This document shows positions 2,121 through 32,100 of a stretch of DNA of 32,335 nucleotides, one piece after another. Made by a program: the position numbers and the translations under genes. The stretch is from a virus (taxonomy: Duplodnaviria > Heunggongvirae > Uroviricota > Caudoviricetes). The stretch lies in the IMG/VR virus record IMGVR_UViG_3300044642_000188; one strand, given 5' to 3'. Position 1 is the stretch's first letter. Each line of letters starts with the position of its first letter. A model generated the notes under the pieces. The model did not search any database, was not told where the DNA came from, and saw only the letters and a program-made list of their open reading frames with translations.

Positions 2121-3977
2121 ATGGATTTAGGATTAGATGCGTTAAGTAAAATAACGATTTTTAGTAAGTATGCAAAGTATGTCCCAGAACTAAAGAGAAG
2201 AGAAACCTGGGATGAGATAGTAGATAGATATCAGACAATGATGATCAAGAAATATCCTAAATTACAAGATGCTATTATAGAGAGTGCCAAGTTTATCAGA
2301 GATAAGAAGGTGTTACCATCTATGAGGGCTCTTCAGTTTGCTGGTCCAGCTATGGAAGTAAATAACGCTAGGGGATATAACTGTGCTTATCTGCCAGTGG
2401 ATAGTCTGTATAGCTTCAGTGAGACTATGTTCTTATTATTAGGTGGTTCAGGTGTTGGTTTTTCTGTACAGAAGCACCATGTAGCTCAATTACCAGCTAT
2501 TAAGAAGCAACAGAGCTACAAACAAAAGAACTATCTTATTGAGGATAGTATTATGGGATGGGCTGATGCTGTGAAGGTGTTAGTTAAGTTCTATTTTGAG
2601 GGTGGTTATAAGCCTAAGTTTGACTTTAGAGCCATTCGTGAGAAAGGAGCTAGACTGGTAACAGCTGGTGGTAAAGCACCTGGTCCTGAACCATTAAAGA
2701 TTGCATTAGCTCACATTGATGCTATTATGGAGCGTAAAGAAGATGGTAGTAAACTATCTCCTCTAGAATGCCATGATATTATGTGTCACATTGCTAACAG
2801 TGTCCTTGCAGGTGGTATTAGAAGATCAGCTATGATTTCTCTATTCAGCCATGACGATGAGGAAATGATTACATGTAAGTATGGTGACTGGTGGGAGACT
2901 AATGAACAACGTGGTAGAAGTAATAACTCAGCTGTCCTTAAAAGAGGTGAGGTGAGTGAAGAAGAATTCATGGCTCTATGGAAAAGAATTGAAGCATCAG
3001 GAAGCGGTGAACCAGGTATCTATTGGTCTAACGACTTAGATTGGGGAACTAATCCTTGTTGTGAAATTGGATTACGTCCATTCCAATTCTGTAACCTATG
3101 TGAAGTGAATGTATCTGATATTGTGGACCAAGACGATCTTAATGAGAGAGTGGCAATTGCTGCATTCTTTGGTACATTACAAGCAGGTTTCTTTGACTTT
3201 CATTACTTACGTCCTATCTGGCAAAAGACTACACAGAAAGACGCTCTATTAGGTATTGGTATGACTGGTATTGGTTCAGGAGAAATCCTTAAATATGACC
3301 TAGAACTAGTGGCTAATACAGCTAAAACTATGAATAGGGACCTATCAGCTCTTATTGGTACTAATGAAGCAGCTCGTATTACATGTATTAAACCTTCTGG
3401 TACAACTAGCCTTGTGTTAGGTACAGCTAGTGGTATACATGCATGGCATGCTCCTCACTATCTAAGAACAATGAGATTTAACAAGAATGAAGACATTGCT
3501 ATGTACTTAGAGATTAACCATCCTGAACTATGTGAAGATGATGTATTACGTCCTAAGGATACAGTGTGTGTACGCATTCCAGTTCAAGCTCCTGAAGGAT
3601 CTATATTTAGAACTGAGTCTCCACTAGATACATTAGAGCGTGTTAAGAAGTTCTCTACAGAATGGATTAAACCAGGTCATAGCAATGGAGCCAATACACA
3701 CAACGTAAGTGCTACTATTTCTATTGCAGATGAGTGGGAAGCTGTAGGTAATTGGATGTGGGACAATAGAGAGGTGTATAATGGTTTATCTGTATTACCA
3801 TTCTTTGGTGGTACGTATAAACAAGCTCCTTTTGAAGACATCACAGAAGAGGAATACAACAACCGCATTAAATCATTGAAATCCATTGACTTAACAAAAG
3901 TGATGGAGATAGATGATACTGTAGACTTTGGTGCTATCCAAGCTTGCGGAGGTGGTGCTTGTGAAGTAAACATCTAA
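2121..3977 (+). CDS. nrdJ: Class II (adenosylcobalamin-dependent) monomeric ribonucleoside-triphosphate reductase
   Basis: YNCAY, GGIRRSAMISL, TNPCCEI, FCNLCEV and KPSGTTSL motifs plus a C-terminal ACGGGAC redox pair; 618 aa; no nrdB adjacent. Confidence 0.92.
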   Translation: MDLGLDALSKITIFSKYAKYVPELKRRETWDEIVDRYQTMMIKKYPKLQDAIIESAKFIRDKKVLPSMRALQFAGPAMEVNNARGYNCAYLPVDSLYSFSETMFLLLGGSGVGFSVQKHHVAQLPAIKKQQSYKQKNYLIEDSIMGWADAVKVLVKFYFEGGYKPKFDFRAIREKGARLVTAGGKAPGPEPLKIALAHIDAIMERKEDGSKLSPLECHDIMCHIANSVLAGGIRRSAMISLFSHDDEEMITCKYGDWWETNEQRGRSNNSAVLKRGEVSEEEFMALWKRIEASGSGEPGIYWSNDLDWGTNPCCEIGLRPFQFCNLCEVNVSDIVDQDDLNERVAIAAFFGTLQAGFFDFHYLRPIWQKTTQKDALLGIGMTGIGSGEILKYDLELVANTAKTMNRDLSALIGTNEAARITCIKPSGTTSLVLGTASGIHAWHAPHYLRTMRFNKNEDIAMYLEINHPELCEDDVLRPKDTVCVRIPVQAPEGSIFRTESPLDTLERVKKFSTEWIKPGHSNGANTHNVSATISIADEWEAVGNWMWDNREVYNGLSVLPFFGGTYKQAPFEDITEEEYNNRIKSLKSIDLTKVMEIDDTVDFGAIQACGGGACEVNI

Positions 3978-4269: not shown

Positions 4270-5304
4270 ATGGCAAAAGCAAAGGAAACCTCAGAGGGCA
4301 AAAGTAAGTATCAAGAAGCCCTTGAGAAATTAAACAAAGCTTACGGTGTAGGAACAATCCTAACACTAGAAAGCAAAACAGATGGTGAGTATGACATTAT
4401 CAGTACAGGGAGTATTGGTTTTGATTACATCACTTTAGGAACTGGAGGATTTGTAAAAGGTAAGATGTATGAACTAATGGGCTGGGAGGGTAGTGGTAAG
4501 TCTACAATTTGTGGTCATGCTGTAGCAGAGTGTCAAAAAAAGGGAGGCACTGTGTTATATATTGATGGCGAGCATGCTGTAGATAAACATTACTTTCAAG
4601 CTCTAGGTGTAGACACTACCAAGATGTTGATTGCTCAACCAAGCTGCGGTGAGGAAGGCTTTAACATTGCTATGGAAATGATTCAAACAGGAGATGTTGA
4701 TCTTGTTATCATTGACTCTGATAGCTCATTGATTCCTAAGAAACAATTAGATGGTGATGTGGGTGATAGCACTATCGGTTACAAAGCTAGATTGAATAGC
4801 AATGCATATCCAAAACTAAAAGGTGCCCTATCACAACATAATGTATGTGTTATTGTTGTAAGTCAATATCGTGAGAAGATTGGTGTCATGTTTGGTAACC
4901 CTACAACAACTCAGGGTGGTCATGCATTGAAGTTTTACACTGATGTAAGAATAGAAGTGAGCAAGAGCTTAGCTAAGGAAGGTGATGTAAACTATGGTAA
5001 TATTACCAAGGTGAAAGCTGTAAAGAACAAGATGAGTTCTCCTTATAAGCTACATGCATTTGATATTGTATATGGTGAGGGTATTGATAAGGTGGGTGAG
5101 ATTATGGAACTTCTTAATGAGTTTGAACTTGGTAGGAAGTATGGTAAGACATTCACATTCAATGAAATAAAGTATGATCTTGACCAGTTTAAAGCTATGT
5201 TGTTAGACAACGAAGAGTTTTACAATGAAATCAAGACTAGTATTATTAACAAAATTAATCAAACTGAAATTAAAATCGAAGAAGATGTTACAAGTGAAAT
5301 TTAA
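4270..5304 (+). CDS. recA: RecA-family recombinase
   Basis: IISTGS motif, Walker A GWEGSGKST, YIDGEHA, Walker B LVIIDS, QYREKIGVMFGNP, GGHALKFY, KVKAVKNK. Confidence 0.96.
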   Translation: MAKAKETSEGKSKYQEALEKLNKAYGVGTILTLESKTDGEYDIISTGSIGFDYITLGTGGFVKGKMYELMGWEGSGKSTICGHAVAECQKKGGTVLYIDGEHAVDKHYFQALGVDTTKMLIAQPSCGEEGFNIAMEMIQTGDVDLVIIDSDSSLIPKKQLDGDVGDSTIGYKARLNSNAYPKLKGALSQHNVCVIVVSQYREKIGVMFGNPTTTQGGHALKFYTDVRIEVSKSLAKEGDVNYGNITKVKAVKNKMSSPYKLHAFDIVYGEGIDKVGEIMELLNEFELGRKYGKTFTFNEIKYDLDQFKAMLLDNEEFYNEIKTSIINKINQTEIKIEEDVTSEI

Positions 5305-12542: not shown

Positions 12543-13202
12543 TTATTTTAGCTCTGATTTATACACCTTTCTAGTGTTCCACAATTGACGATAGTTTCCT
12601 CCAGAGTGGTCTCCTAAATAAGCCATACTTCCATGTTGACCGTTTCTTTTTCCTCTGGCAATTAATGTATCATTGAGCACAAAGCAAAATGTATCATTGA
12701 GCACCATCAATGCTCCTTTGCAATATTTTGTGGAATAGTCAAACGCTTTTCCTAGCACACCTGGACCTGTACAATCTACAGGATATTTACCATAGTGTTT
12801 TGATTTACAATTACTTACTATTATATCAACAGCTTTCTTTAAATTCTTATTACCTGGAGGAGCATAGAACATACCTACTGCAACATATCTGTCTATTGTG
12901 TCTTTAAAGAACACACCATTTTCATCATTGTATTTATCTATATCAGGAAGAACAGAAAAACTAGTATCTATATACCAACCGCCATGTACATATATAATTG
13001 CAAACCTAGCTAAGTCTGCTTTAAAAGAATATGGAACTAGTTCATCGTAAGCCCAAAGTACCTCTGGTTCAAACTCTTTTTCTAAAAGCTCCTTTATACT
13101 ATTGTTGTCCCACAGCTTGTGTTCATATTTAGCTTTAACTGCTTCTATTTTTGCAACAGCTACTGGGGATGGACTATCAGTTATGTAGATTTGATGTATC
13201 AT
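12543..13202 (-). CDS. GT32 / Gly_transf_sug-type glycosyltransferase
   Basis: MIHQIY, KLWD, FKADLARFAIIYVHGGWYIDT, TGPGVL. Confidence 0.85.
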   Translation of the reverse strand: MIHQIYITDSPSPVAVAKIEAVKAKYEHKLWDNNSIKELLEKEFEPEVLWAYDELVPYSFKADLARFAIIYVHGGWYIDTSFSVLPDIDKYNDENGVFFKDTIDRYVAVGMFYAPPGNKNLKKAVDIIVSNCKSKHYGKYPVDCTGPGVLGKAFDYSTKYCKGALMVLNDTFCFVLNDTLIARGKRNGQHGSMAYLGDHSGGNYRQLWNTRKVYKSELK

Positions 13203-13885
13203 TTCATTATCACAGGTTCGTTATCTAAATATCCTGTATACACAGAATGATGTCCCCTTGATACACCATCGTAAGTCAATCCTACATAGTCATTACATTC
13301 AAACTCTAAATAACCTTCTTTACAATAATCTTTAGTTTCAAGAATAGCCCTGCTATAACATAAAGGACCCGTTACACTAAGAATATCTGTTTTTGCACTT
13401 ATTTTTCTTGGTCTATGAACATAGTTTTTTATGTTCTGTTTCATTCTAGAAATCACTGTATGTAAAATTGGATGCCCTGGTTCAGATATTATATGCCAGT
13501 TTTGGAATTCCCCAAACTTATATTTAAGTGTATCAGCATGATGTCTGTGACACCAATGTCCTGTAACAAACTTGTAGTTTTCTGCCCACTCAGTTAAGTC
13601 TTTCTCAGGACAACTTTTAATATCAAAATAGAATCCTCCAACCTTGTATATAAGCAAATACCTAAAGAAATCAGCCTTTGCCATACCAAGCTTTGGATTA
13701 ATCATGTTATACAGATGCAATGTCTCTTCATCATAATTTTCTTTAATGAATGTATAAACATCTTCATCATCGTATAATCTATATTCAAACGTAGGACATG
13801 CCTCTTTTAATCTAAATACCACTTCCTGTAATTCTAATGGAAGCTTTTTAGTTTTAAACGTTTGATGTATTATCTTAGGTATCAT
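13199..13885 (-). CDS. GT32 (Och1/Sur1-like) glycosyltransferase
   Basis: MIPKIIHQT, KADFFRYLLIYKVGGFYFDIKS, FQNW, TGP. Confidence 0.88.
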   Translation of the reverse strand: MIPKIIHQTFKTKKLPLELQEVVFRLKEACPTFEYRLYDDEDVYTFIKENYDEETLHLYNMINPKLGMAKADFFRYLLIYKVGGFYFDIKSCPEKDLTEWAENYKFVTGHWCHRHHADTLKYKFGEFQNWHIISEPGHPILHTVISRMKQNIKNYVHRPRKISAKTDILSVTGPLCYSRAILETKDYCKEGYLEFECNDYVGLTYDGVSRGHHSVYTGYLDNEPVIMK

Positions 13886-13893
13886 CAGTTGGT

Positions 13894-14586
13894 TTATATA
13901 AAATCTAAATTTATATCAGGGTTGTTGGAATTGTTAGGAGTATCTAAAGCAGTTGGAAAAGTTTCAGTACTAATACTAGCTTCTGGAACAAGTGCCTTTG
14001 GAACAAATGTGAGTTCTAACACAATTGGTATATCACGTCCTTCATAATTAAATGTGGAAGCATAATTGTTTCCATGAACATGACATAAATAAAAATACTT
14101 ATCAAGTTCAATTAAATAACTTATAAACTGGTCTCTATAAATCTCTTGATCTAAATCATGAAATTCAATAACCATTCCTGTAACTACATGAGACAGTTCT
14201 TCAATATTAGTATTTGCTAACCACTCATATTCACATCCTTCTACATCTATCTTTAACAGCACTCTTCCAGATATACCAAGTTCTTTATAATGATTTAGAA
14301 AGTTATCTGTTTGCTCCTGAGGAGTCCCAGACAATCCTTTTTTATACCATGTAAATAAGTCAGGATATTGAGTTTCAATACCTTCTATAGTATGGTCATA
14401 CCCACACACTTTCTTGTTAGTAAGCTGTATATAATGTTCATCAAATGTAATATCGTTATTTATTCCATAGCTAAACAAACACTCGCTATCTTCTAACATT
14501 TGTTTTGGAAGAATATACCCCCCATCATAAGTGTTTCCGAGTCTAATTTTTTCCCCTACATAATAGGGCTTTAATTGGTTTATCAT
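13894..14586 (-). CDS. FkbM/METTL24-like SAM-dependent methyltransferase
   Basis: RLGNTYDGGY, FSYGINNDITFD, LKIDVEGCE, VIEFH, HVHGNN. Confidence 0.8.
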   Translation of the reverse strand: MINQLKPYYVGEKIRLGNTYDGGYILPKQMLEDSECLFSYGINNDITFDEHYIQLTNKKVCGYDHTIEGIETQYPDLFTWYKKGLSGTPQEQTDNFLNHYKELGISGRVLLKIDVEGCEYEWLANTNIEELSHVVTGMVIEFHDLDQEIYRDQFISYLIELDKYFYLCHVHGNNYASTFNYEGRDIPIVLELTFVPKALVPEASISTETFPTALDTPNNSNNPDINLDFI

Positions 14587-14590
14587 TGGT

Positions 14591-14872
14591 TTATAATGTT
14601 ATATCAAAGACAATTGTTGCAGAACTCTTTATACTTTTAGACAGATCTAAATGGATCTGTAAGAGGTTATGAAACTTCAAAATCTCTTCTAGCAACATGT
14701 CATTATACCTGGGTACAGACGGTGCTAGTCTAAAGTGGTAGGAATTAGGATTCCTAGTAATTTCTAATGTGGCTAACTCATCCACAGAATCTATAATTCC
14801 CTGAAGGTGAGCAAAATAAGCAAGTTCGTTATCTTGCATCACCTCAGGAAAGAATTTCTTGTTAATTTGCAT
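14591..14872 (-). CDS. Hypothetical protein, 93 aa
   Basis: TAATG coupling; operon-like spacing. Confidence 0.7.
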   Translation of the reverse strand: MQINKKFFPEVMQDNELAYFAHLQGIIDSVDELATLEITRNPNSYHFRLAPSVPRYNDMLLEEILKFHNLLQIHLDLSKSIKSSATIVFDITL

Positions 14873-15276
14873 TAAGACAAGGTTAATAAGTATTTAGTTT
14901 TTGCTGCTTCACCGCTTAGAGCATCTGCTAGATTTGCTATATCGTGGAAGCTATTTGCTTCAGCATATCTTTTTAAGTTACTTGCAAAGTCCATAAGAGC
15001 TGTTACAACTGCATTAGAATCTGTAGCAGTTAAAGGGTCTATTTTAAATACACCAGGACGTTTACCTGTATAGCCCATAAGTTTCTCAATAACACCATCT
15101 TTGAAATCATGTACATAATCATATAATCCTCCAAGAGCTTGATGTTGAGCGTAACTCTTTGTCTGCCAATGTAATAGATGTAATTGCTCATGAAAATATG
15201 TAAGCTTTCCAGCTATTGTTTCTAAGTTTAATTCTCCTGATTTCATCATCTCATCAGGGAATAATGATTTTGCCAT
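14872..15276 (-). CDS. Ferritin/Dps-like four-helix protein (DUF5856-like)
   Basis: LHLLHWQTKSYAQHQALGGLYD...D.VIEKLMG pattern of phage Dps-like proteins. Confidence 0.75.
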   Translation of the reverse strand: MAKSLFPDEMMKSGELNLETIAGKLTYFHEQLHLLHWQTKSYAQHQALGGLYDYVHDFKDGVIEKLMGYTGKRPGVFKIDPLTATDSNAVVTALMDFASNLKRYAEANSFHDIANLADALSGEAAKTKYLLTLS

Positions 15277-15295: not shown

Positions 15296-15709
15296 TTAAC
15301 ATGGTGTACCATTGTTTGTAATTGTAGATCCTGATAAAGTATATGCAGTTCCATTAAAACTTATATACTGGTTTCCTGTCCAAGGTTGCGTTAATGCTGC
15401 ATCATAGTATAAATTTACACCTACACCTAACGTAGATTGTGCAGTGTAAACAAGCCAACCAGGAACACCTGCACATGCAAATTCAGGAGTTACTGATGAG
15501 ATAATTGCCCATGCTGTAGGTGTTACACTTCCACCACCTTGTGTAGTGGTAGTGGTAGTGGTAGGTATTTCATTACAACATTCATTTGCATTGATTTCCA
15601 CCCAATTACCTACAGCAGGTTTAAACCTTTGTAGAATAGGACCACCAGCTATCACTCTACCTGTACCATCATAGCGTACGTACGCTTTTAATTTATTTTG
15701 ATTTGCCAT
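15296..15709 (-). CDS. Modular putative virion surface protein: anchor A, poly-Thr linker, variable domain
   Basis: LKAYVRYDGTGRVIAG...KPAVGNWVEI...ECCN, then PTTTTTTTQGGGS. Confidence 0.8.
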   Translation of the reverse strand: MANQNKLKAYVRYDGTGRVIAGGPILQRFKPAVGNWVEINANECCNEIPTTTTTTTQGGGSVTPTAWAIISSVTPEFACAGVPGWLVYTAQSTLGVGVNLYYDAALTQPWTGNQYISFNGTAYTLSGSTITNNGTPC

Positions 15710-15725
15710 TTTTTTTGTATCTTTA

Positions 15726-15750
15726 AGAGCACACCATAACGATGTGCTCT
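15726..15750 (-). other. Intergenic stem-loop (up to 11 bp in the minus-strand RNA)
   Basis: AGAGCACA / TGTGCTCT is a perfect 8-bp stem, extended by G-U pairs on the minus strand; no U tract in the sense direction. Confidence 0.55.
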
Positions 15751-15770
15751 ATTTTATTTAATTATATTAT

Positions 15771-16457
15771 TTATCCACAAGAAACACATTCACCAGGAGC
15801 TCCACCTGCACCTTGGATTATTGAATCACTAATTTTACTAAATAATCTTGAAAATCCACCATAGATTACATAAAATGTTGAAGGCAACATTGAGAAATTA
15901 CCTTGTAATTCAACAACTGGATCACATATGTTACTACCAGTAGCAAATGATACTGTTGTAAAAGTACTAGGTGTTCCACAAGATTCTGAATTGTATCCTA
16001 CATTTATAGTTGCTATAGTAGTGGTAGTTGTTGTTGTTATAAATGCACAATTATTTATGTATTGCATTACACCTTGTGAGTTTGTAAGATATAAATCTCC
16101 AAAACGTTGAATGTAAGAATTTGCATAAGGTATTGTCAATGCTTCATTAACGTATGCTACTTGGTTTTCTCCAGGAGCTGCAACAAACCAAAGAACAGTG
16201 CCTTGAAATCCTTCACATGCAATTTCAGCAGTTGGTCCTGTAAATAATTCAAAAGGAAAACCACCACCTCCACCACCTTGTGTGGTTGTTGTTGTAGTTG
16301 TAGAAGATGAAGGAATGTAATTACAACATTCGTATGCTTGAATTTCATGCCACTTACCCACCTTAGGTTTATTTTTCCTAAGGATTAAGCTACCAGCAAC
16401 GATTCTTCCGCTTCCATCGAAGCGAACAAAGGCTCTTAAGTCTCTCTTATTACTCAT
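15771..16457 (-). CDS. Modular putative virion surface protein: anchor A, two poly-Thr linkers, two variable domains
   Basis: LRAFVRFDGSGRIVAG...KPKVGKWHEI...ECCN; SSSTTTTTTTQGGGGG; ITTTTTTTI. Confidence 0.8.
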   Translation of the reverse strand: MSNKRDLRAFVRFDGSGRIVAGSLILRKNKPKVGKWHEIQAYECCNYIPSSSTTTTTTTQGGGGGGFPFELFTGPTAEIACEGFQGTVLWFVAAPGENQVAYVNEALTIPYANSYIQRFGDLYLTNSQGVMQYINNCAFITTTTTTTIATINVGYNSESCGTPSTFTTVSFATGSNICDPVVELQGNFSMLPSTFYVIYGGFSRLFSKISDSIIQGAGGAPGECVSCG

Positions 16458-16471
16458 AATAATCGTTTTTG

Positions 16472-17488
16472 TTAATATAATAATTTGTATTTTTCTCTTA
16501 ATTCCATCAGTTGTGATGTATAATAGTGTGTGCAGAACTTCTGACTAATCTCACTATTCATAACTGTCTGTAAATGAGGATCATTGAAAGGATCTTGTCC
16601 TGTGTGATACTTTCCTTTATAGAAAGCAGGATACCCATTGGCTTGATCACCAACAATTCCTGCATTATGTAGGAGTCCCATTCTCTTTATTTTCTCAATT
16701 GGATCAGAAGACCAAGCAAAATCCATTTCAGGAATAATCTTTGCTTCTTGTTTCCTATACCAAATAGCCCAAAGAACAGCCCACATATCAGCACACCAAC
16801 TTTGAAAGCCTTTATCTTCATTCTCAAAGAATTCTCTATTTACGTTTAGTAAATGTGTTCTAATTACCAAACAATCTTGCAACACCTTATCCCAGAAATC
16901 ACTATCGATGTTCTTTAATAGGTATTGAGCTCCTCCTGAATGTAAATTATTAGCTTCAGCTATCTCTCTAGTTATGCCTGTAAACTCTGCTGTTTCAGCT
17001 AGAATGTCTCTAGTCTTATACAACTCAAGCTTTTCAGGCTTTACATCTCTAATCTTACTATCAAAATATGAAGCGTTGATATAACTGTTTGTATCAGATA
17101 CATAGTTTATATCATCATCCAGATAAGCATCTATGTTTAGATTCTCTGTAAACACTACGTCTGAATCACAATACATAACAGCTTTATCTTTCATCCCTGG
17201 ATTCTCTTCAAAATATCTTCTCAGACAATAAGGACGCAACACAGGAATATAAACTCCTAACATGTTACTAATCTGGTGCTCATCTTTGTAGAATACAAAT
17301 TCAGCCTCTGGATAGAGGTCTATCACTTGCTGCCATTTGGTATTCTTCTCCCTATAACTAGGAATGAATATAAGCACAATTGCCTTGTCTGAATGTCCAA
17401 TTTTCCTTAAGCTCTCTATCCATAAATGTACCTGCCATGTGTAATAGGTATCATCTGGTTGAGCACAGATAAATCTGAGATCCTTCAT
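16472..17488 (-). CDS. GT-A glycosyltransferase resembling plant HPAT (GT95) / SERGT1 (GT96) peptide O-glycosyltransferases
   Basis: Colinear motifs DTYYTWQVHL, YIPVLRPYCL, VMYCDSDVVF, GGAQYLL, SWCADMW, LLHN parallel HPAT-type YxxWQ, YxxLNRP, MxEPDHVF, GNSPVI, GWVLEMY, IIHY (recalled from memory). Confidence 0.65.
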   Translation of the reverse strand: MKDLRFICAQPDDTYYTWQVHLWIESLRKIGHSDKAIVLIFIPSYREKNTKWQQVIDLYPEAEFVFYKDEHQISNMLGVYIPVLRPYCLRRYFEENPGMKDKAVMYCDSDVVFTENLNIDAYLDDDINYVSDTNSYINASYFDSKIRDVKPEKLELYKTRDILAETAEFTGITREIAEANNLHSGGAQYLLKNIDSDFWDKVLQDCLVIRTHLLNVNREFFENEDKGFQSWCADMWAVLWAIWYRKQEAKIIPEMDFAWSSDPIEKIKRMGLLHNAGIVGDQANGYPAFYKGKYHTGQDPFNDPHLQTVMNSEISQKFCTHYYTSQLMELREKYKLLY

Positions 17489-17524: not shown

Positions 17525-18655
17525 CTAGTTATTAGTAACAGTACACCCACGTCCTTGTAATACAGCTTTTGCAGCTAAACCAGTTGCAGAAGGTGTTGCT
17601 GATGTACCAGTTATTGTAACAGTTCTATTATTGAATGATGTAGTACCATTTGTTCCGTCTAATGCTGCTAAACTAACTAAAATTCCGTCTACACTACTTT
17701 GACTTAAAGAACAACTTGTAAAAATTACGTTTCCTGATGTTCCCCCTATTTGTTTCAAACCTGAACCAAAACCAAAAACAGTCAAATTTGGTGTTCCTGA
17801 TGAAAAATTAATTGTATTACCGCCAGAACTATATATTCTTACAATACTTGGCATAATAAAACTAAATAAAGCCGTACACGATTGAACGCTTAATGCAGTT
17901 GCGTTATTGTTATTATTTAATGTAGTTAAATTAACAAAAGCAATATTTGTTAATGATGTCAAACTTGATATACTAATTTGAGCAAAAGCGGTGGCTAATG
18001 AATTAAAATTAAATGTAGTTACTGCCGTTTGATTACTAATATTAATAGCTTGACCAACTGAAACTAAATTAGAAAAATTAATACTTGTTACAACGCTTGG
18101 ATTATTATTATTTAAAGTTAATGAACCAAGATAAGTAATATTTGGAAAATTTAAATTTAAAATATTTAAAGATGAATTTATTGAAAATCCACTGCCAACT
18201 CTTTGTAAACTTGGAAGTGATGCACCTAAATCTGTAATTAAAGGAGAACCTGGATTAAATTGGTTTTGAATTGCAACTAAATTAGGTAAACTTAATGTAG
18301 TTAAATTTGCAAAGTTTGTTTGAAAATTTTGTAAAATTTCAACATCACTTGTAAAAGAAGTAATAGAATTATAATTACTTGAATTAATTGTTAATGCACC
18401 CGTTTTTGTATATCCCGATAAAACAACTCCATTAATGTTTGAATTAATTAAATAGTTATCAAAATAATATCCCGGATTAATATTATTTGTTGTAACAAAA
18501 CTAAATGTAGGCATAACGGGACCGCCACCGCTTGCTAAATCAGCAATATCTTGTGCTGTTGTTTTTACTGTAGAACTACCTTGAACTACAGGAATTTCTT
18601 CTGCACCAGTTAATGCAGAACCTGCTGTCAGTTGACTAATTTTTACGTTTGCCAT
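17525..18655 (-). CDS. Putative fibre/adhesin: KISQL-type N-terminal segment plus LRR / receptor-L-like beta-solenoid
   Basis: MANVKISQL...LTGAEEIPVVQG; ~22-aa repeats LSLPNLVAI, SLPSLQRVG, NFPNITYLG, NFSNLVSVG, NFNSLATA. Confidence 0.7.
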   Translation of the reverse strand: MANVKISQLTAGSALTGAEEIPVVQGSSTVKTTAQDIADLASGGGPVMPTFSFVTTNNINPGYYFDNYLINSNINGVVLSGYTKTGALTINSSNYNSITSFTSDVEILQNFQTNFANLTTLSLPNLVAIQNQFNPGSPLITDLGASLPSLQRVGSGFSINSSLNILNLNFPNITYLGSLTLNNNNPSVVTSINFSNLVSVGQAINISNQTAVTTFNFNSLATAFAQISISSLTSLTNIAFVNLTTLNNNNNATALSVQSCTALFSFIMPSIVRIYSSGGNTINFSSGTPNLTVFGFGSGLKQIGGTSGNVIFTSCSLSQSSVDGILVSLAALDGTNGTTSFNNRTVTITGTSATPSATGLAAKAVLQGRGCTVTNN

Positions 18656-18665
18656 TTTTATATTT

Positions 18666-19532
18666 TTATTCTATAATTAAATTATCACCACCCTCTGTTA
18701 TGATGGGGTCACTACCCTCTGTTGTTATAAAATCACCAGGAGCACTGGTGGTTGTAGTTGTTGTTGTAGGACAAATATAAGGTGAACATGCAGGTAAATC
18801 ACTAAGATTATATATTGCAGAGATGATACCAGTTGTTAATGTAAACACTTTTGCATTTAAATAAGGACCGCCTAAATCATATATGTAAGTACCACTAAAT
18901 GTAACAGGAGGATTTCCAGGAGTTGTATTATATATTTGTGTTCCTACATTAAATCCTGCAGATGTATAGTATAAGAATGAACTTCCGCCATAGCTAGGAC
19001 TACCACTATTAAATACTTCAATCCAATCACATTTTACTTCAGCTGGTGTTTTTGTTGACCAATCTGTACCTACTCCACATATTACACCATTACTATATAA
19101 ATTTATTGGTTGAAAAGAATCTGTTGTGGTGGTGGTTGTTGTAGGTGTAGCAGTTGTTGTTGTACTAGTTGTAGAGGTTGTTGTACTTGTAGAAGTTGTA
19201 GTAGATGTACTTGTAGATGTGGTGGTGGTGGTGCTTGGGTTACAAGACTCACAAGGCTTTATGAAATAAACCTCTTTCCAATTACCATCCTGAGGAGCAT
19301 CATGTTGAAGAATCAAACTACCAGCTACATATTTGTTGCTGTTATTTTGACCACCTATTTTATTTATATATCTAACAAATGCACGTAGTTTATAGTTGGG
19401 AGGGGTAGTTGTAACAAGAACGTCACTAATAGCTACCCAGTCACCCACCTTAGGTTTAACTGAAGTTACTATTGGTCCACCTGGAACAATCCTTCCCTTA
19501 TTATCATATCTTATGTAAGCAGTTAAACTCAT
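18666..19532 (-). CDS. Modular putative virion surface protein: tandem anchor A x2, long Thr/Ser linker, domain, Thr linker, TEG tail
   Basis: AYIRYDNKGRIVPG...KPKVGDW and LRAFVRY...VAGSLIL...GNWKEV; 37-aa Thr-rich tract; C-terminal FITTEGSDPIITEGGDNLIIE. Confidence 0.8.
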   Translation of the reverse strand: MSLTAYIRYDNKGRIVPGGPIVTSVKPKVGDWVAISDVLVTTTPPNYKLRAFVRYINKIGGQNNSNKYVAGSLILQHDAPQDGNWKEVYFIKPCESCNPSTTTTTSTSTSTTTSTSTTTSTTSTTTTATPTTTTTTTDSFQPINLYSNGVICGVGTDWSTKTPAEVKCDWIEVFNSGSPSYGGSSFLYYTSAGFNVGTQIYNTTPGNPPVTFSGTYIYDLGGPYLNAKVFTLTTGIISAIYNLSDLPACSPYICPTTTTTTTSAPGDFITTEGSDPIITEGGDNLIIE

Positions 19533-19541
19533 ATCTTTTTA

Positions 19542-19703
19542 TTAAACAGTAGTCGTAGTAGTAGTGGTAGGAGGAACAGTTGTAGTAGTGGTAGTTGTAC
19601 CATTGTTATACATAACACGTGTCAGAGTCTCTAATTGCTTAGATATCTGCCATAGCAAATTGCTTTTTGTACCCCAGCCTATCTGTCTTGATGGTATTGC
19701 CAT
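19542..19703 (-). CDS. 53-aa protein: anchor B plus a near-pure Thr tail (missed by the ORF track)
   Basis: MAIPSRQIGWGTKSNLLWQISKQLETLTRVMYNNGTTTTTTTVPPTTTTTTTV; paralogous to the N-terminus of 19726-20667. Confidence 0.85.
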   Translation of the reverse strand: MAIPSRQIGWGTKSNLLWQISKQLETLTRVMYNNGTTTTTTTVPPTTTTTTTV

Positions 19704-19725: not shown

Positions 19726-20667
19726 CTATCCTACTTGATTTACTGTTACAATTAATCCAGGAATAGCAGGGATATTTCCTGTAGCTACAGCTGATGTAAT
19801 TGCTATTGCATTATCTGCATTACTATTTATTTCCCATTTAAGTTGTACATATTCATTAGCACTTGTTGTCTTGAAAAAGAAATTCCAAGCTGGTACAACA
19901 TACACAGAGTTAGAAGGAAATCCTATTTGTGAAGCACTATTAGGTACACTTACACCATTTTGTGCTAACCAAATATGAATGTGTGTAGCAGTGTTACCAG
20001 TATTTTTTACCATCTGAGCACTAAACGCTATGCTATATACACCAGGATTAGCTATAGTTATTCTATTACCAGAAACAATTGAAACACCGTTGTTCCAAGA
20101 ATCTGAATTATTAAGACCCATTGTAAGAACACTATTAGCAACACCTGTTTGATTTGTAGTGTCATAGAAAGATCCTAGATAACCAAACCCACCAGCTGCA
20201 CCCTGAATTCCTTGAATACCCTGCACACCTTGTATACCTTGCTCTCCTTGAACACCTTGAACACCTTGGATGCCTTGATCACCTTGAGGTCCTTTTATAT
20301 CACCAGCATCAAACCATACAGTTCCATTCCAAGTCATCAATGATCCATCAGATAATAAAATCCATGCATCACCAATGTTAGCACCTGGTAAACTTCCTGC
20401 TCCTGCATTAAATGCAGCAAGATCAGCATAAGATCCAAGAAGAGTTACAGAATTACCTGCACTTCCTTGAGCTCCAGTTTCACCTTGCACACCTTGTATT
20501 CCTTGTATTCCTTGTGGACCCTGAGGACCAATAGGTCCTTGAGGACCTACAATACCACCACCTCCACTATTATATGTCACTCCTGTAAGAGCTTCTAATT
20601 GTTTAGAAATCTGCCACAAAAGATTTTCTTCTGTGCCCCAGCCTATCTGTCTACTTGGTATTGCCAT
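19726..20667 (-). CDS. Collagen-like fibre protein: anchor B, Gly-X-Y repeats, BclA-like C-terminal domain
   Basis: MAIPSRQIGWGTEENLLWQISKQL; two GPQ/GIQ/GVQ tracts; GSFYDTT...ITIANPGVYSIAFSAQ. Confidence 0.85.
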   Translation of the reverse strand: MAIPSRQIGWGTEENLLWQISKQLEALTGVTYNSGGGGIVGPQGPIGPQGPQGIQGIQGVQGETGAQGSAGNSVTLLGSYADLAAFNAGAGSLPGANIGDAWILLSDGSLMTWNGTVWFDAGDIKGPQGDQGIQGVQGVQGEQGIQGVQGIQGIQGAAGGFGYLGSFYDTTNQTGVANSVLTMGLNNSDSWNNGVSIVSGNRITIANPGVYSIAFSAQMVKNTGNTATHIHIWLAQNGVSVPNSASQIGFPSNSVYVVPAWNFFFKTTSANEYVQLKWEINSNADNAIAITSAVATGNIPAIPGLIVTVNQVG

Positions 20668-22187: not shown

Positions 22188-22787
22188 TTATTTTAATAGG
22201 TTATTATATTCATTAAAATGCTTGATACGATCAGGAAGTCCAATTGTACCACCATTTACACGCTTAGTAACCTTAGTAACTACAGCATCTGTAGCTCCTT
22301 CATCAGCAATCTTATGTAAACCATTCTTATGGAAGAACCAAGCTGCAGATAATAAAGGATACTTTGTAGCTACTAAATCAGGGGTAGCAAGGATATCATC
22401 CTCTACAGATTTATCAAAAGCTGTGTAGTTATCCTTTCCAGTTAGCTGAATGTATCCACGTCCTCTGAACTTCCAACCCTCACCAGATGCTTCTAAACCA
22501 TTACCCATACGACCACCATACACCTTGTTAGCAATCTTTTCTGGCTGACGAGCATATGCATTAGCTAATGCTTCTGTAGGAAAGTATTTCTTAAAAGTAT
22601 TCATAAGACCTTTAGCCCCATAGTTTAGGTTCTCTGAAACAGCTTTGAATCCACCTGATTCATGACCACACTGAGCCAAGAAATGAGCTAGTCTTAAAGG
22701 AGTATTGATTTCAAACTTAGTTTGTACATCAGGAATCTGAGCAATCACTGTGTCAGGAATGTGTCCTTTTAATTTTTCTAAATTCAT
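22188..22787 (-). CDS. GH19 (chitinase-like) endolysin
   Basis: RLAHFLAQCGHESGGF, ENLNYG, YGGRMGN, FRGRGYIQLTGKDNY, VTKRVNGGTIG. Confidence 0.93.
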   Translation of the reverse strand: MNLEKLKGHIPDTVIAQIPDVQTKFEINTPLRLAHFLAQCGHESGGFKAVSENLNYGAKGLMNTFKKYFPTEALANAYARQPEKIANKVYGGRMGNGLEASGEGWKFRGRGYIQLTGKDNYTAFDKSVEDDILATPDLVATKYPLLSAAWFFHKNGLHKIADEGATDAVVTKVTKRVNGGTIGLPDRIKHFNEYNNLLK

Positions 22788-25711: not shown

Positions 25712-26170
25712 TTAACAACCTACTACATTAACAATAAAGCCACCATTGTCCACCTGATAACTAGCTGAACCAGGTCCTTGAGAAAACCATTGAAAACCTC
25801 CTACCACAGGGGTTATATTACAATCATAAGCTACCCATAATCTCGTAGGAGAAATAGCACTGTCAGTATCATATAACGTGTAACTTCCAAAGTGGTCACA
25901 TGGACTAGAATTATAAGGATATAGATATATTTGTTGACATGCTGGTGCTGCAGCTTGTAGATCTGATTTTACAACCAATTGATTGGAAGCTTTAGCAGCA
26001 TAAGGTCCATAAGATGTATTAATGTTTACATAATAGTCAGCATCAGCTTTGGTTATCTGTTCTGAACTTGCAGGTATGCTATTCTTTAATGTAAATACCC
26101 CTGTGTTTACAGCATTCTGTAAATTGTTAAATGATACACATTGATTATTTGCAAGTGATGCCCAACTCAT
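25712..26170 (-). CDS. Tail-associated structural protein, 152 aa
   Basis: TAATG-coupled to the tail fibre; conserved-looking N-terminal half and a Cys/Tyr/Gly-rich C-terminal domain. Confidence 0.7.
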   Translation of the reverse strand: MSWASLANNQCVSFNNLQNAVNTGVFTLKNSIPASSEQITKADADYYVNINTSYGPYAAKASNQLVVKSDLQAAAPACQQIYLYPYNSSPCDHFGSYTLYDTDSAISPTRLWVAYDCNITPVVGGFQWFSQGPGSASYQVDNGGFIVNVVGC

Positions 26171-29100
26171 TATGCTTCGTATTTTTGAAGTTTAACCTCT
26201 AATTCAGCAACTCTTCTTTTAAGAACATCAACTTCATCCTCAATATATGCAATCTTTGCTGTGTGAACTTCACGATACACAAGGCTGTACATGTTATCTA
26301 CATTGTCATTATTCACTGCATATGGCATAATCTCCAAGAAGTCTTGAGCAATATATCCAAACTCAGTCTTGCCATCTTTCTTATATAACTTAGGCTTGAT
26401 TAACTGAATGTCCTTTACACGAGAGTTATCTTCAAGTATTGTCTTTACACGAGCATCTGAAGTTTCGTAGTAAGCTGATGCGTATGCAGTACCGTGAACA
26501 TATATACCCCCTGTATTATAATCATTATTATTCACTGACATTACAAGACTTGACATATCATAGTCAGTATAAAAGTTCATCCCCTTATAATTAGCATTTG
26601 CTCCAAACTTAATACCTGTATGGAAAGCAATTCTTAAATCTGGATAAGGAAAAGACCAAGATCCAGCTTCTCTATAAATAGCATAGGCTGCTGAAGCACT
26701 ACTATCCCAATAAACTCCAAACCCATCATCATCTGAAACTGATCCACTATTTCGTAAAGTGCCAGCTAAATATACCGTGCTTAATACTGATGAGCCATTT
26801 GGATCTAGGTAATAATTTGTATCGTTAGAATCATAGAATATTGGAGCTCTGAAAGAATAAGGAGAATAAGTGTAACCACCATTTGAAGATCCATAAACAT
26901 ATAAAACACCAACTGATCCACCAACACTTGTTATTCTAAATCCTGTACCCTCATATGCATTTAACTCTTCCCAATCATCTGCTGCGTTCCATAAGTAGTG
27001 ATTGAGGTCACCATTAGTTCTTAGAAATAATCTTTGGTCATTCATGCCTGTATTACCAATCCAGTTACCATTCACAGGTAGAGCATATGAACTATAGTTA
27101 CCTGAATGTAGAACATCTACATAAGAAGAATATGGAGAAGTAGATCCAAAGGACTGCTGCCATATTCTCATCCCAAATCCACTCTTAAGGAATGTCACAA
27201 GATTATCACTTCCTCCTGACCCATCACTATATGAACGAAGATGTAAGTAGTCAGCGTATGGAGCACTATTATTATTAGCCCACGATGTAAAACCAAATCC
27301 CATTCTATAGGATGTCATAGTTGAAGGAGAGATAGTTCTTACATCCCAAGTTTGAATAGCACCACCTGATGTACCATTTACAAGATAAGCAACGTTTGCT
27401 TGGTTCACACTTCCTGCACTAGTTGCATAAGATACAGACTGAGAACCTATGTTACCTGAGTGAATCATTTCTACCCAAGCATTTAAAGTAGCCCACCCAT
27501 TTCTCCAAAAATATCTATTTACGGCTTCTCCAGCACAAGTCATTTGAAATCCATAGCCATTAACATTATTTTGATGATTATAATGCATTGCATTAAATCC
27601 TACATAGTGAGAAGAACCACCGGGAGCATTACCCGGACTACTCCATGTATCAAAAAATCCAGAACCCCAATTAGAAAAAATTACATTGAAATCAGTTGTA
27701 GCCCAACCCATAGTACCATTTTGATACGGAGCCCCTTGACCTGATCTAGTAACAAATGGAGAGTTAATGCTAAGATAGTTAATAGCATTTCTTGTCATAG
27801 AGGCTGATGTAAATCTATATAGATTAGATTCACTATTAGGATCTACATAGTAAGCTGTATCATTTGAATCATAAAAGATTGGAGCTCTAAAATCTCCAAC
27901 CGAGGCAGCGGTACCAGCACTATTTACTGTGAACTTCCAATCACCAGCTACATATACTCCCCAAACTGTAGAGGATTGAGCTCCCATAAATTGATCAGAT
28001 CCACCTCCATATGATAACCATACACCTGGCGATCCAGTATTAATGTATGGGAAGGAGCCATTACCAATTCCAATTCTGTTTAGAAACTGAACTTGATTTA
28101 GCCTAGATGTGCTATTAGGATCTAAATAATATCCTGTATCTTGAGAGTCATAGTAGATTGGAGCACGCATTTGGTTATTAACTTCTACATATCCACCACC
28201 ACCATTAACAAATAGTTGAGTGTAACTAAAGCTGCCATTATGAGCCTGTAATCTAATAACTCTGGTGGCTGCACTGTTACCCGTATTTTCCATATAGGTG
28301 CCAGTACCGTCATTCCAAATCACTGAATTGACAGTAGTACCTATCGTTAGAGGTCCTGTTAATGTACCACCTGCTAATGGTAAATATGCAGGTGCAAGTG
28401 TAGCACTGTCAGCCACTCTAGCACTATCTACTCTTACACCATATGTACTAGTTCCATTCCAGCCCATTAGTGTTGGATAAGTTGCACTCCAAGCAGCTGT
28501 TGAATTAGTATTACTACAACCACCTCCGCTTGGATTTACAGATGCTGATGCATCAAATATAACGTGGTTATTACCATAGTTTTTCCATGATAATAAACCA
28601 ACTACGTTATTAATAACAGTGCTATCATTCCAGTTTGATTGAGCTCTTGAAGCTACGTTACCTGTTGCAGTTATGCTCCATGTACCACTAGCTCCACTTC
28701 CTGTAAGAGAAGGGGAGTAAGCTGTATAGTTTGCATCATTAAGTAAAACCCTCCACGTATTAAATGTACCTGCATCTCCATTTCTAGTTCTAAATGCAAT
28801 ACCTGTTCCACCACCACTATATGCAGCATTAAATTGTAATGAATAATTTGAATCACCAATTCTTTCAATAGGACCTGTATATGGTGCATTTACAGAATAT
28901 GTAAATCCACTTGCATTGGTATCCATTGTATTAGCATCAAGTGTGAATCCTTGATAATAATATATATTAGACGGCTTACCTGTAATTGCTGCCCAAGCAA
29001 CTGAACTAGCACTTCCTGCGGATCCTGTAATGTTTATTCCCCATGTACCTGAAGCACCACCACCTGTTAGTGTTGGCGAATATGAATTATAATTTGAACT

Positions 29101-32100
29101 TGTAAGATAGTTTTGCCATACACCCCATCCTGAAGCATAAGGAGATGTTCTATACCAACTACCTCCACTTGCATCAAAATAAACTTGTGTATCAACATGA
29201 CTACCAAGACTATAATACTGCATAACAGTACCATAATCTGAACCAAGCCCTGTACCATTAAAATAATTGTTCCACATCTTAATAGACATGGGATTCATAG
29301 TAGTCCTTGGTGCTGCAGAAGGATTGAAATTTGTTGATTCGTAACTTAATTGAAAAACAGAAAAAGTATTTAAAACACTACCATTTAATTGTGCTGGTGT
29401 GTATCCTAGAGCTGAACATACGTTAGCTCCTGTTAAGTTTAAACAGATGTTACCACTTGTTGTTACAGGAGAATTACAAACGTTTATATTTGTAGCTACC
29501 ACTCCTACAGATGTAACTGTACCTGTACATGTTGTGTAACCATTTGGATTGGTTGCATTGTAAGGTGTATATCCTAATGCTGAGCAAACATTTGCTCCAG
29601 ATAAGGAAATAGCTAATGTGCCAGATGTTGTGATTGGGCTACCTGTTACAGAGATGTTAGTTCCTGTAGCAGCTACGCAAGTCACTGTACCTGTACAGCT
29701 AGTTCTACTATTAAAACTGTTCCAGTCTGCAGCAGTTAATAAACCTGTGCAAGTAGATGAAGCAGTGGCAATGTTTAATGATAAATTTCCTGAAGATGTA
29801 ATAGGAGAACCTCCTATTGATACACCAGTAGTTGAAGATGTAAGACCTACACTAGTTACAGTACCTGTACAACTAGTGTGACTGTTGAATGTATTCCAAT
29901 CAGCAGCAGTAAGTAAACCTGTACATGCTGTTGAAGCAGTGGAGATATTAATACCAAGTGTACCACTTGATGTAATAGGACTACCAGATAGAAGCACACC
30001 AGTAGTAGATGTAGAGGTTGCAATGTTTGTTACAGTTCCTGTACAAGTTGTATAACCTGCAGGGTTTGTAGCGTTATATGGAGTGTAACCTAAAGCATTA
30101 CATACATTAGCACCACTAAGTGATAATCCAATAGTACCAGCTGATGTAATAGGGCTTCCAGTTACACCAATGTTTGTACCACTAACAGCAACACATGTCA
30201 CTGTTCCTGTGAAACTATCAGAAGATGTAATAGTGAAGTTAGGATAGGTTCCTGTAATAGAGGTTGTTCCACCTCCAGTTAGAGAAACTATTTGATCAGG
30301 ACAAGAGTTTGTTATTTGTCCTGTAGTTGGATTATATGCAACACCAGAGCTTGCACAGATTGCACTTCTAGCTCTACTATCAGTGAAGTAGAGATTAGTA
30401 CCCTCTGTAACAACAGATGTATCTAATGTTTGGAAAGTTTTATCCCCTCTGTAATATTGACTTATTGTACCAGCAGCAATCAGTGGTTGTTTATCATTGA
30501 ATGTAGTCCAATCTGTAGCACTTAAATAACCATCTGTTGTAGTGTTAGATTGTGTAATACCAAATACACCAGTGGTAGAACAATATGTTAAAGGGGCTGT
30601 ATGACCTATAGCAGCTCTCACCCTTGCATCTGTATAATATAAGTTGCCACACTCAGTAACTTGACAAGATAAGTAGTCACCAGTGGTAGCTACAACAGCA
30701 CCAAATCTACCAAACACACTAGTTACACCATCACTATTATCTATCTTAACCCATCCTGTAGCAGATTTAACTGCTAAGTCACCAACCTGCCAGTCAGTAA
30801 TACCACCAAGGTTTGTTGTCCCAGCTACAGAAACTCTCCAAGCCCAACCTGTTGTGGTTGTTCCAGATATATCAGGAGTGTTAGTAGCAGCATCCCAATC
30901 GCCTTGTAATATAATACCACCAGCTGTTGCACTATCAACGTAAGTCTTAACAGCTAGTTGTGTAGGATAGAGTGTGTTTGATACACCTAGAGATGTACAT
31001 GTAGATTTGTTTGCTACATCTTCAGGACTATATCCTAATGTAGAACAAATATCTCCAGCAGTTGTAGGGTTTGCACTTGTAATTAAACCCTTACCATTTA
31101 CAGCAATGTTTAATAAAGTCTCAGATGTGTATACATCATTGTTAACTGTGGCTAATGTAAGACTGGTACAAGTTCCTGTAGAACCTGTTCCTGTTACATC
31201 ACCAATAAATTCTAATGATCCAGATATATTACTTGTAGTGACACAGGTTACTAACCCTTTATTATTAACTGTTATTACAGGAACTTGTGTAGAGCTACCA
31301 AATGTACCTGTTGTGGCATTCACTGTAGCAAGAGTTAAGCCTGCAGATCCAGGACCTGAAGCTGTACCATCACCAGTGAGATCTGTAATATAATTACCTG
31401 CTGGTTGTTTACCATTAAACGTATTCCAGTCAGTTGAACTTAAATAACCATCGCTACCAGCACCTGCTTGTGTAATACCAACTGAACCACTGCCAGTGAT
31501 TGTACCACCTGTTAAAGGAGCAGAAGCTGTAATGCTTGTAACAGTTCCTACAGACCAACATCTGTCAGCTGTAAGATCATAGTTTACACCATTGATACCT
31601 AATTGTCTAGTGTCTGGAACAGGTGTATATCCTAAAGCATTTTGTTTATTATTAAATGTATTCCAATCTGTGGTAGACAAGTAACCATCTGTAGATGCAT
31701 TAGCTTGACTAATAGATATTGTAGGAGTGAGTCCTCCTGTTGTAGCAAGAGGAGCAGATACAGATATACTAGAAATGTATGATAGAGAAGGAATGTCTGC
31801 AGCTACTAGAGCTCTATATGTAGGAGTTCCTGCTCCACCATCAGGACCAGCAAACACTGTGTTAGCTGCTGCATTAGCTAATGCAAAACTTAAAGCAGGG
31901 GTTGTTGTAGGAGTTGCTACAGATGTAGTGAATAATGGAACTAAGTTACCAGAACTAAAGCTTGTTACCTTTTCTGGAAGATCTGGATAATCGTTAGTAA
32001 TTGTAAAGTTTGGATATGATCCAGATATGCTGATACCATAACCAGCATTTAGTGTAACGGTTTGGTCAGGAGCAGTGTTAACTATATTTATAACTGGAAT

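Follow-up and report, generated by a model that had tools for sequence, protein, structure and literature searches.

An open reading frame (ORF) at positions 16472–17488 of the IMG/VR virus record IMGVR_UViG_3300044642_000188 is predicted to encode a 338 amino acid (aa) glycosyltransferase of GT-A fold. The record is a 32,335 nucleotide stretch from a member of the Caudoviricetes and is referred to below, in its whole length, as the window. As judged by comparison of genes, the enzyme is likely to act in the cytoplasm and to start the O-glycosylation of polythreonine tags on virion proteins. Genes that encode runs of threonine (Thr) lie on both sides of the enzyme gene, the same pairing is found in very different phages, and the idea of a Thr-directed initiating enzyme is thereby strongly supported by comparative genomics. 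Runs are given below as T5, T7 etc., according to the number of consecutive Thr residues.

Threonine-run genes adjoin the enzyme gene

Thr runs of at least five residues are found in the window solely in four minus-strand ORFs that flank the enzyme, all within ~2.2 kb. Seven of the eight runs are exactly T7. The earlier note had placed the gene among poly-Thr genes, and this description holds. The runs are encoded by mixed ACN codons and therefore are not slippage repeats. The enzyme gene starts with ATG and is tightly packed in a minus-strand operon, with a gap of 36 bp on its upstream side and 14 bp on its downstream side. The enzyme and the four Thr-run ORFs are as follows.

15296..15709, minus strand: 137-aa paralogue with anchor module, T7 and variable C-terminal domain; candidate acceptor
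15771..16457, minus strand: 228-aa protein, 14 bp downstream of the enzyme, with anchor module, T7, variable domain and second T7; candidate acceptor
16472..17488, minus strand: GT-A fold glycosyltransferase of 338 aa, PHROG 4417; candidate initiating enzyme for poly-Thr tags
18666..19532, minus strand: 288-aa protein with repeated N-terminal anchor module and Thr/Ser-rich tracts (T5, T7, T7); candidate acceptor
19542..19703, minus strand: 53-aa protein, a 35-aa N-terminal module followed by T7-VPP-T7-V; candidate minimal acceptor

Homologues of the 228-aa protein are present at all 80 related loci and homologues of the 53-aa protein at 76 of the 80, where the T7 run is invariant in the 15 that were aligned. 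Mucin-like Pfam matches of the 288-aa protein are weak and sub-threshold. The Thr-run proteins look like small fibre or decoration proteins that would plug into the virion by a common anchor.

Two reusable N-terminal modules are seen in the window. One is common to the 53-aa protein and a collagen-like fibre protein encoded next to it. The second is displayed by three Thr-run proteins (15296–16457 and 18666–19532) whose C-terminal domains are unrelated. Such reuse suggests interchangeable display proteins that share one socket of the virion.

The pairing recurs in uncultured phages

Among 66 IMG/VR loci in which the enzyme is 65–100% identical, 63 have Thr-run ORFs, and these are nearly always the immediate neighbours on both sides. 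The neighbours range from 45 to 438 aa. Seven is the dominant run length at these loci (214 of 351 runs), followed by eight (62 runs). Outside of the window's lineage there are 19 runs of five, 19 of six, 29 of seven and two of eight. An acceptor site that reads the run like a ruler is one idea for the preference for seven Thr. In the window and the related loci (L002–L081), T7 is often followed by V/A-P/A-P.

The enzymes of related loci, diverged loci and cultured phages form 17 lineages when clustered at 60% identity. Fifteen of these have an adjacent Thr-run ORF, one has none and one has no flanking sequence; three single-locus lineages were found through the T7 pattern itself and are to be discounted. 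The linkage is close: with all loci taken together, 235 ORFs lie no further than 150 bp from the enzyme gene and 116 of them encode a run of at least five Thr, compared with 4 of 1267 ORFs at distances beyond 3 kb. Two additional, distant members of the family were used for scans, which gave no loci or two only.

The nearest complete genome (G001, 114 kb) has Thr-coding runs at three loci only, all on the strand of the enzyme. One is the neighbourhood of the enzyme gene, and the others encode an 805-aa protein and two proteins beside a fibre-like gene. The loci far from the enzyme (L241:2027–4444 and L242:1447–3400, both minus strand) display dense T6–T9 runs. Thus the enzyme could act in trans on tags encoded elsewhere in the genome.

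Cultured phages with and without the enzyme

Seven enzyme-bearing phages were sampled: Chryseobacterium phage MA9V-3, Enterococcus phages phiFL1A and Planchet, Lactobacillus phages iLp84 and Semele, Staphylococcus phage RQ1 and Lactococcus phage 1706. All seven have Thr runs in the gene before the enzyme. In four (phiFL1A, iLp84, 1706 and RQ1) the tags are at the C-termini of capsid or tail-tube proteins, that of RQ1 being on a tail protein. The phiFL1A capsid protein ends in T5-KP-T5-KP-T7-QG and its tail-tube protein in a 21-residue Thr/Ser run. Both capsid and tail proteins of iLp84 end in T7-SK, and the capsid-protease and tail proteins of 1706 end in T9-HHD and T10-HHD. RQ1 has eleven T7–8 runs, and Semele, Planchet and MA9V-3 have Thr runs alike. 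Three of these phages (phiFL1A, 1706 and RQ1) have the enzyme gene between those for the tail-tube protein and the chaperone; in Planchet and iLp84 it comes after the capsid gene. In Semele, a member of the Herelleviridae with a 139 kb genome, it adjoins a gene for a Thr-run protein. Some of the carriers are temperate phages.

Orf3 of phage 1706 (L205:461–865), which is annotated as a holin, displays a T7 run near its C-terminus. The tags may perhaps not be restricted to virion proteins.

Thr runs were found in none of seven sampled phages that do not carry the enzyme, six of which have homologous capsid proteins. Streptococcus phages Javan570, Javan249, Javan46 and P9 have capsid proteins 60–69% identical to that of phiFL1A and the same gene order; however the enzyme gene is missing from its place between the tail-tube and chaperone genes, and the capsid and tail proteins end where the phiFL1A Thr tail starts. 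The capsid protein of Oenococcus phage phiS11 (54% identical) stops likewise relative to the iLp84 tail. TP-778L and phiEf11 also show no Thr runs. The difference of 7/7 vs 0/7 gives a Fisher p value of 0.0006, with controls that are phylogenetically non-independent.

Phage phiEf11 had been taken up as a possible tagged phage, as an oversized tail protein is reported for it (PMC5221750). The 20-kb structural region that was fetched has neither the enzyme nor Thr runs, and phiEf11 became a negative control. In Javan570, Javan249, P9 and Javan46 (L207–L210) the capsid protein has a short C-terminal tail rich in Pro and Gly, and in some of them the tail-tube protein has a similar one. Both proteins of Javan570 end in PGVGG, which is maybe another shared C-terminal tag.

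The enzyme and its family

The earlier note had picked out six motifs by eye. All are present in the ORF and in the order given there: DTYYTWQ (residues 13–19), YIPVLRPYCL (80–89), MYCDSDVVF (105–113), GGAQYLL (185–191), SWCADMW (230–236) and LLHN (272–275). An alignment of 80 relatives, with identity down to 28%, displays eight invariant columns (Y80, D108, D110, Y136, Q229, F257, H274 and K291), and the nearly invariant residues include R85, G185, G186, Q188, Y189 and D234. Eleven of these 14 residues fall within the six motif blocks. The motifs are the most conserved blocks of the family, i.e. its signature, and are not chance strings.

The enzyme has no Pfam match even at E ≤ 10, and neither sequence nor profile searches gave a relative in the PDB. 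It does match PHROG 4417, a family of "unknown function", with an E-value of 2e-54 (residues 5–320 against profile positions 2–286 of 293). The AlphaFold2 model built with the family alignment has a mean predicted local distance difference test (pLDDT) score of 97.4 and a predicted template modelling (pTM) score of 0.93. Its Rossmann-like GT-A fold, the DxD motif and a C-terminal His as putative metal ligands place the enzyme in the metal-dependent GT-A class. D108-x-D110 together with H274 is the putative metal site, as position and conservation of these residues suggest. The first strand of the model starts at residue 4 and the maximum 19-residue hydropathy is 0.76, thus there is no membrane segment. 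With no hydrophobic segment, the enzyme is predicted to be soluble and would therefore have to act in the cytoplasm. It is probably a retaining enzyme, and the phage family of which it is a member is large and unnamed. When modelled in complex with Mn and the 53-aa T7 protein, in a run without controls, the enzyme scored 0.02, which weighs neither for nor against the proposed pairing.

The family comprises 2897 clusters at 90% identity in a word-indexed search, and "hypothetical protein" is every source name shown among the 120 clusters listed. At 50% identity and E ≤ 0.001 there are 764 clusters. A tblastn search finds the enzyme in 77 phage records, with hosts in Lactobacillus, Enterococcus, Staphylococcus, Lactococcus, Clostridium, Chryseobacterium and Arcanobacterium; no Mycobacterium or Streptococcus phage is among the 77. 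Many uncultured aquatic phages likewise carry the family.

The extra domains recognised in 48 long family members are GT2, Glyco_transf_7C, GT6, GT32, several methyltransferases and one radical-SAM/SPASM domain. Among the long members (P0141–P0270), radical-SAM/SPASM and GT6 are each found as a fusion in one protein. The fusions fit a short glycan pathway in which this enzyme would act first, with extension and methylation as optional later steps. The ESM-Atlas also holds a cellular cluster from Bacteroidota of 581-aa Glyco_transf_7C fusions, with a template modelling (TM) score of 0.86.

Relationship to the plant HPAT and SGT1 enzymes

The resemblance to plant hydroxyproline O-arabinosyltransferases (HPATs) and SERGT1 that the earlier note proposed is upheld by fold and by language-model features, but not by Pfam membership. 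The nearest named ESM-Atlas clusters by language-model features belong to PF23452 (HPAT) in 22 of 30 cases, with scores of 0.96–0.97 and 207–213 shared features. With HPAT excluded, the next clusters are DUF7164 (0.90–0.96), then GT6 and GT8 at 0.87–0.88 with 113–119 shared features. GT8 is absent from the families listed for the 30 Atlas models nearest in fold. Superposition of the enzyme model on a green-algal (Chlorophyta) cluster that is 100% PF23452 gives a TM score of 0.71 over 301 of the 338 residues, predicted models being compared on both sides. By predicted fold, the enzyme thus appears closer to HPAT-family proteins than to other GT-A families.

The sequence evidence comes through a relative. 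Protein P0258 is related to the enzyme with an E-value of 1.8e-35 and an hhalign probability of 100% against the family profile, and it matches PF23452 nearly end to end (E = 1.3e-4). Its 21.9 bits fall below the Pfam gathering cut-off of 23.9 bits, however, and this is the best score of any relative. PF23452 matches are seen in 4 of the 80 relatives (E ≤ 1) and in 1 of 56 relatives of P0258 (E ≤ 0.1, P0258 itself alone), all of them sub-threshold. P0258 is in both of the scanned sets (136 relatives), so the distinct matching proteins are maybe four. PF23452 is the family with matches in the largest number of members of the alignment. A word-indexed search from P0258 as a bridging protein gave phage-type relatives only.

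Three independent lines, i.e. features, fold and sequence, point to the plant/algal HPAT family. It is quite likely that the enzyme is a remote relative of GT95/GT96 which stands outside of the family by the Pfam criterion. The type II membrane anchor of the plant enzymes is not seen here, as the strand from residue 4 and the hydropathy maximum indicate. No prolyl-hydroxylase match was found among the window ORFs scanned.

A different ancestry, that of a GT8-like retaining transferase with a generic GT-A/GT8 fold, convergent motifs and no special kinship to HPAT/SGT1, is unlikely but has to be weighed. The Pfam HPAT model misses the enzyme and 11 phage records that carry the family, few relatives match it, and the kinship draws on predicted models, language-model features and sub-threshold matches of relatives. 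In addition, the best solved folds are GT8 structures, an outcome that the earlier note had named as adverse. Foldseek gives a TM score of at most 0.48 for any solved GT-A chain; GT8/GT24 structures align over 226–250 residues, and a range of 209–239 is also obtained for solved GT8 structures. No DNA glucosyltransferase, the other outcome named in the note, was among the closest solved folds. To our knowledge there is no solved structure of an HPAT. HPATs have been described as "related to GT8" (PMC4908140), and GT95 as related to GT96 (PMC8012813). GT8 structures are therefore the expected best matches in the PDB under kinship with HPATs, and they do not refute it. Moreover the HPAT-family model aligns 301 of 338 residues vs 226–250 for GT8 structures, and the feature scores show the same preference. 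The enzyme itself has no GT8 (PF01501) match at E ≤ 10, and GT8 clusters reach a feature score of only 0.87, although the fold is similar.

Other genes of the window

Plus-strand genes in the first 9 kb of the window include those for replication and nucleotide metabolism, and the minus-strand genes beyond include fibre and lysis genes. The remaining features are listed by position.

2121–3977, plus strand: ribonucleotide reductase (PHROG match)
4270–5304, plus strand: UvsX-like recombinase (PHROG match)
12543..13202, minus strand: second GT32-type DXD glycosyltransferase, paralogue of 13199..13885 (Pfam Gly_transf_sug, 2.3e-8); 6 of 80 relatives
13199..13885, minus strand: GT32-type DXD glycosyltransferase (Pfam Gly_transf_sug, 6.7e-11); 6 of 80 relatives
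13894..14586, minus strand: FkbM-family methyltransferase (Pfam Methyltransf_21, 5.2e-7, above cut-off); 2 of 80 relatives
17525..18655, minus strand: 376-aa fibre-like protein directly upstream of the enzyme, no Thr run (no Pfam or PHROG match)
19726..20667, minus strand: collagen-repeat tail-fibre protein, no Thr run (Pfam Collagen, 4.2e-10; PHROG tail/tail-fibre families)
22188–22787, minus strand: endolysin (PHROG match)
26170–32334, minus strand: very large ORF of more than 2037 aa that runs off the window end

The collagen-like fibre, which shares its N-terminal module with the 53-aa protein, is present at 64 of the 80 related loci and marks the cassette as virion-fibre genes. The 376-aa fibre-like protein is a variable insert (7 of 80 relatives). 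The GT32 pair and the FkbM gene are on the enzyme's strand, 2.6–3.9 kb downstream. A possible role of the GT32-type enzymes is glycan extension and that of the FkbM methyltransferase glycan O-methylation. They were considered as core partners of the enzyme and rejected for their rarity (6 and 2 of 80 relatives, respectively); this phage has them as an add-on. Two further genes follow the Thr-run genes in most relatives, i.e. a DUF5856 gene (Dps-like, PHROG 858) at 14872–15276 in 77 of 80 and a 93-aa ORF at 14591–14872 in 72 of 80.

Proposed function

The fold, the conserved DxD and His residues, the size and distribution of the family and its recurrent tight linkage with Thr-run genes are the observed basis of the proposal. 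From these we infer a protein acceptor with Thr as the modified residue and, beyond that, the donor sugar, the retaining mechanism, the accessory roles and the benefit to the phage. Since the same pairing of enzyme and Thr run occurs in very different phages, these phages probably sugar-coat their own particle proteins.

Late in infection the enzyme would bind a UDP-sugar through Mn or Mg at D108/D110/H274. The first sugar, from a common UDP-hexose, would be moved to Thr hydroxyls of short tags, typically T7, and retention of configuration is probable, as in the closest structural relatives. The targets would be newly made fibre, decoration, capsid or tail proteins, modified before or during assembly. 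In the window the tags would serve as linkers or tails of the small fibre or decoration proteins whose genes flank that of the enzyme; in other phages capsid and tail-tube proteins have them at the C-terminus. As a result the virion would acquire a mucin-like sugar coat. In this phage the two GT32-type transferases and the FkbM methyltransferase may extend and methylate the glycan.

A bolder form of the proposal is tentative. T7 would be a portable sequon, where the enzyme measures a run of about seven Thr like a ruler and loads sugars onto it, and any virion protein that gains T7 as a tail or linker becomes glycosylated; at the same time the phage family would be the bacterial/viral sister of plant GT95/GT96.

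Alternative explanations

Several findings weigh against glycosylation of the Thr tags by the enzyme or against its kinship to HPATs. In one lineage (L221/L222) no Thr run adjoins the enzyme gene. Of 80 arbitrary IMG/VR loci with a T7-coding run (L085–L164), only 3 have a family member in the stretch that is stored, and there it lies directly next to the run; the other 77 have none in that stretch. As a reverse test of the association this count is too weak for use, and a control pattern would lack statistical power. The association is thus one-way, with Thr runs widespread where no enzyme is nearby. Other transferases may serve these runs, or the runs may be plain linkers. The PF23452 model finds no match (E ≤ 10) in the enzyme, or in 11 phage records that carry the family. 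The rarity of the GT32 pair and the FkbM gene among the relatives weakens their link to the enzyme, and the capsid and tail-tube genes of this phage fall outside the window. For no member of the family does the literature searched report a glycan, a mass shift or an activity, and none of its papers deals with the family, with PF23452 or with poly-Thr tags of phage proteins together with a transferase.

One alternative is that the enzyme glycosylates other sites or the product of a neighbouring gene, and that the Thr runs are flexible linkers which travel with it in a decoration module by shared modular inheritance. The abundance of T7 runs with no enzyme nearby and the lineage without an adjacent run agree with this, and the runs of the window are placed like linkers, between the anchor module and variable domains. 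However the siphovirus tags form the very C-terminal end of capsid and tail-tube proteins and have nothing there to link, and some tagged proteins are barely more than an anchor and T7. The tags are also absent from 54–69% identical homologues in phages without the enzyme. This alternative is judged improbable.

Modification of a host envelope glycan (teichoic acid, capsule or lipopolysaccharide), which would block superinfection or aid release in the manner of prophage serotype-converting transferases, is quite improbable. It would suit a GT-A enzyme that in some relatives is fused to GT2 and methyltransferase domains typical of polysaccharide pathways, and it would suit the temperate carriers. 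Yet the enzyme is soluble with no membrane segment, and its gene is inside late structural operons (phiFL1A, 1706, RQ1, Planchet and iLp84) and occurs beside a Thr-run protein in the Herelleviridae phage Semele as well. The linkage with Thr runs would be left unexplained. It would also be left unexplained by glycosylation of phage DNA bases as a defence against restriction, which is the classical role of phage glycosyltransferases (PMC12619734) but a very remote prospect here. The gene is surrounded by those for fibre, capsid and tail proteins, ordinary temperate siphoviruses carry it, and no DNA glucosyltransferase is among the closest solved folds of its product.

Significance

If Thr tags are indeed glycosylated by the enzyme, thousands of "hypothetical proteins" would gain a function. 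T7 as a tag and one soluble enzyme could then serve for protein glycosylation in the cytoplasm of bacteria. The family is of relevance to dairy phage biology, as starter cultures are infected by several of the carriers. With regard to phage therapy, glycans on the virion reportedly influence how antibodies recognise mycobacteriophages, and effects on stability or on adherence to mucus are conceivable. In terms of evolution, the plant enzymes that glycosylate extensins would gain relatives in viruses of prokaryotes. The portable sequon, if true, would amount to a modular "glyco-tag" of Bacillota and Bacteroidota phages, with a bearing on the origin of the extensin glycosylation pathway.

Comparison with known systems

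HPAT1-3 (GT95, PF23452) and SGT1/SERGT1 (GT96, peptidyl-serine alpha-galactosyltransferase) add the first sugar to hydroxyl side chains of low-complexity, proline-flanked tracts (PMC4908140, PMC8012813). The phage enzyme is likewise of the GT-A type, has HPAT as its nearest named family by predicted fold and language-model features, and is proposed to have a first-sugar role. The plant enzymes have a type II membrane anchor and are Golgi-lumenal (PMC8012813), whereas the enzyme from a bacterial phage has no anchor and would be cytoplasmic. The candidate acceptor also differs, i.e. poly-Thr vs hydroxyproline (Hyp) or Ser next to Hyp.

Other GT-A enzymes are further removed. The GT8 enzymes glycogenin and LgtC, and GlyE of the pneumococcal serine-rich-repeat pathway, show ~10–12% identity to the enzyme, with no Pfam GT8 match; by structure, GT8 folds leave ~60–110 residues of the enzyme model unmatched. 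A64R, the capsid glycosyltransferase of the eukaryotic giant virus PBCV-1 (a Chlorella virus), matches the fold more distantly, over 191 residues, and its acceptor sites are different.

The closest parallel in function is found in mycobacteriophages, which are the sole experimentally documented self-glycosylating phages in the literature searched. As summarized in later papers, capsid and tail-tube subunits of Che8, Corndog and Myrna are glycosylated at their C-termini (Freeman et al. 2023, cited in PMC12363180 and PMC12619734). The systems named there are Che8 gp108–110 and Corndog gp38, and virion glycosylation is reported in later papers to shield mycobacteriophages from antibodies. The likeness lies in phage transferases that act on the phage's own capsid and tail-tube C-termini, which in the present case are candidate tags deduced from the genes. 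The proteins themselves differ, as Che8 gp108, gp109 and gp110 are unrelated to the family (negative hmmsearch bit scores, hhalign probability ≤0.5%) and Thr runs are absent from the ends of the capsid and tail proteins of Che8. If the proposed function is right, a job of the mycobacteriophage type, the glycosylation by phages of their own particles, is done here by a different, far more widespread and as yet unannotated enzyme family with a simple and recognisable tag.

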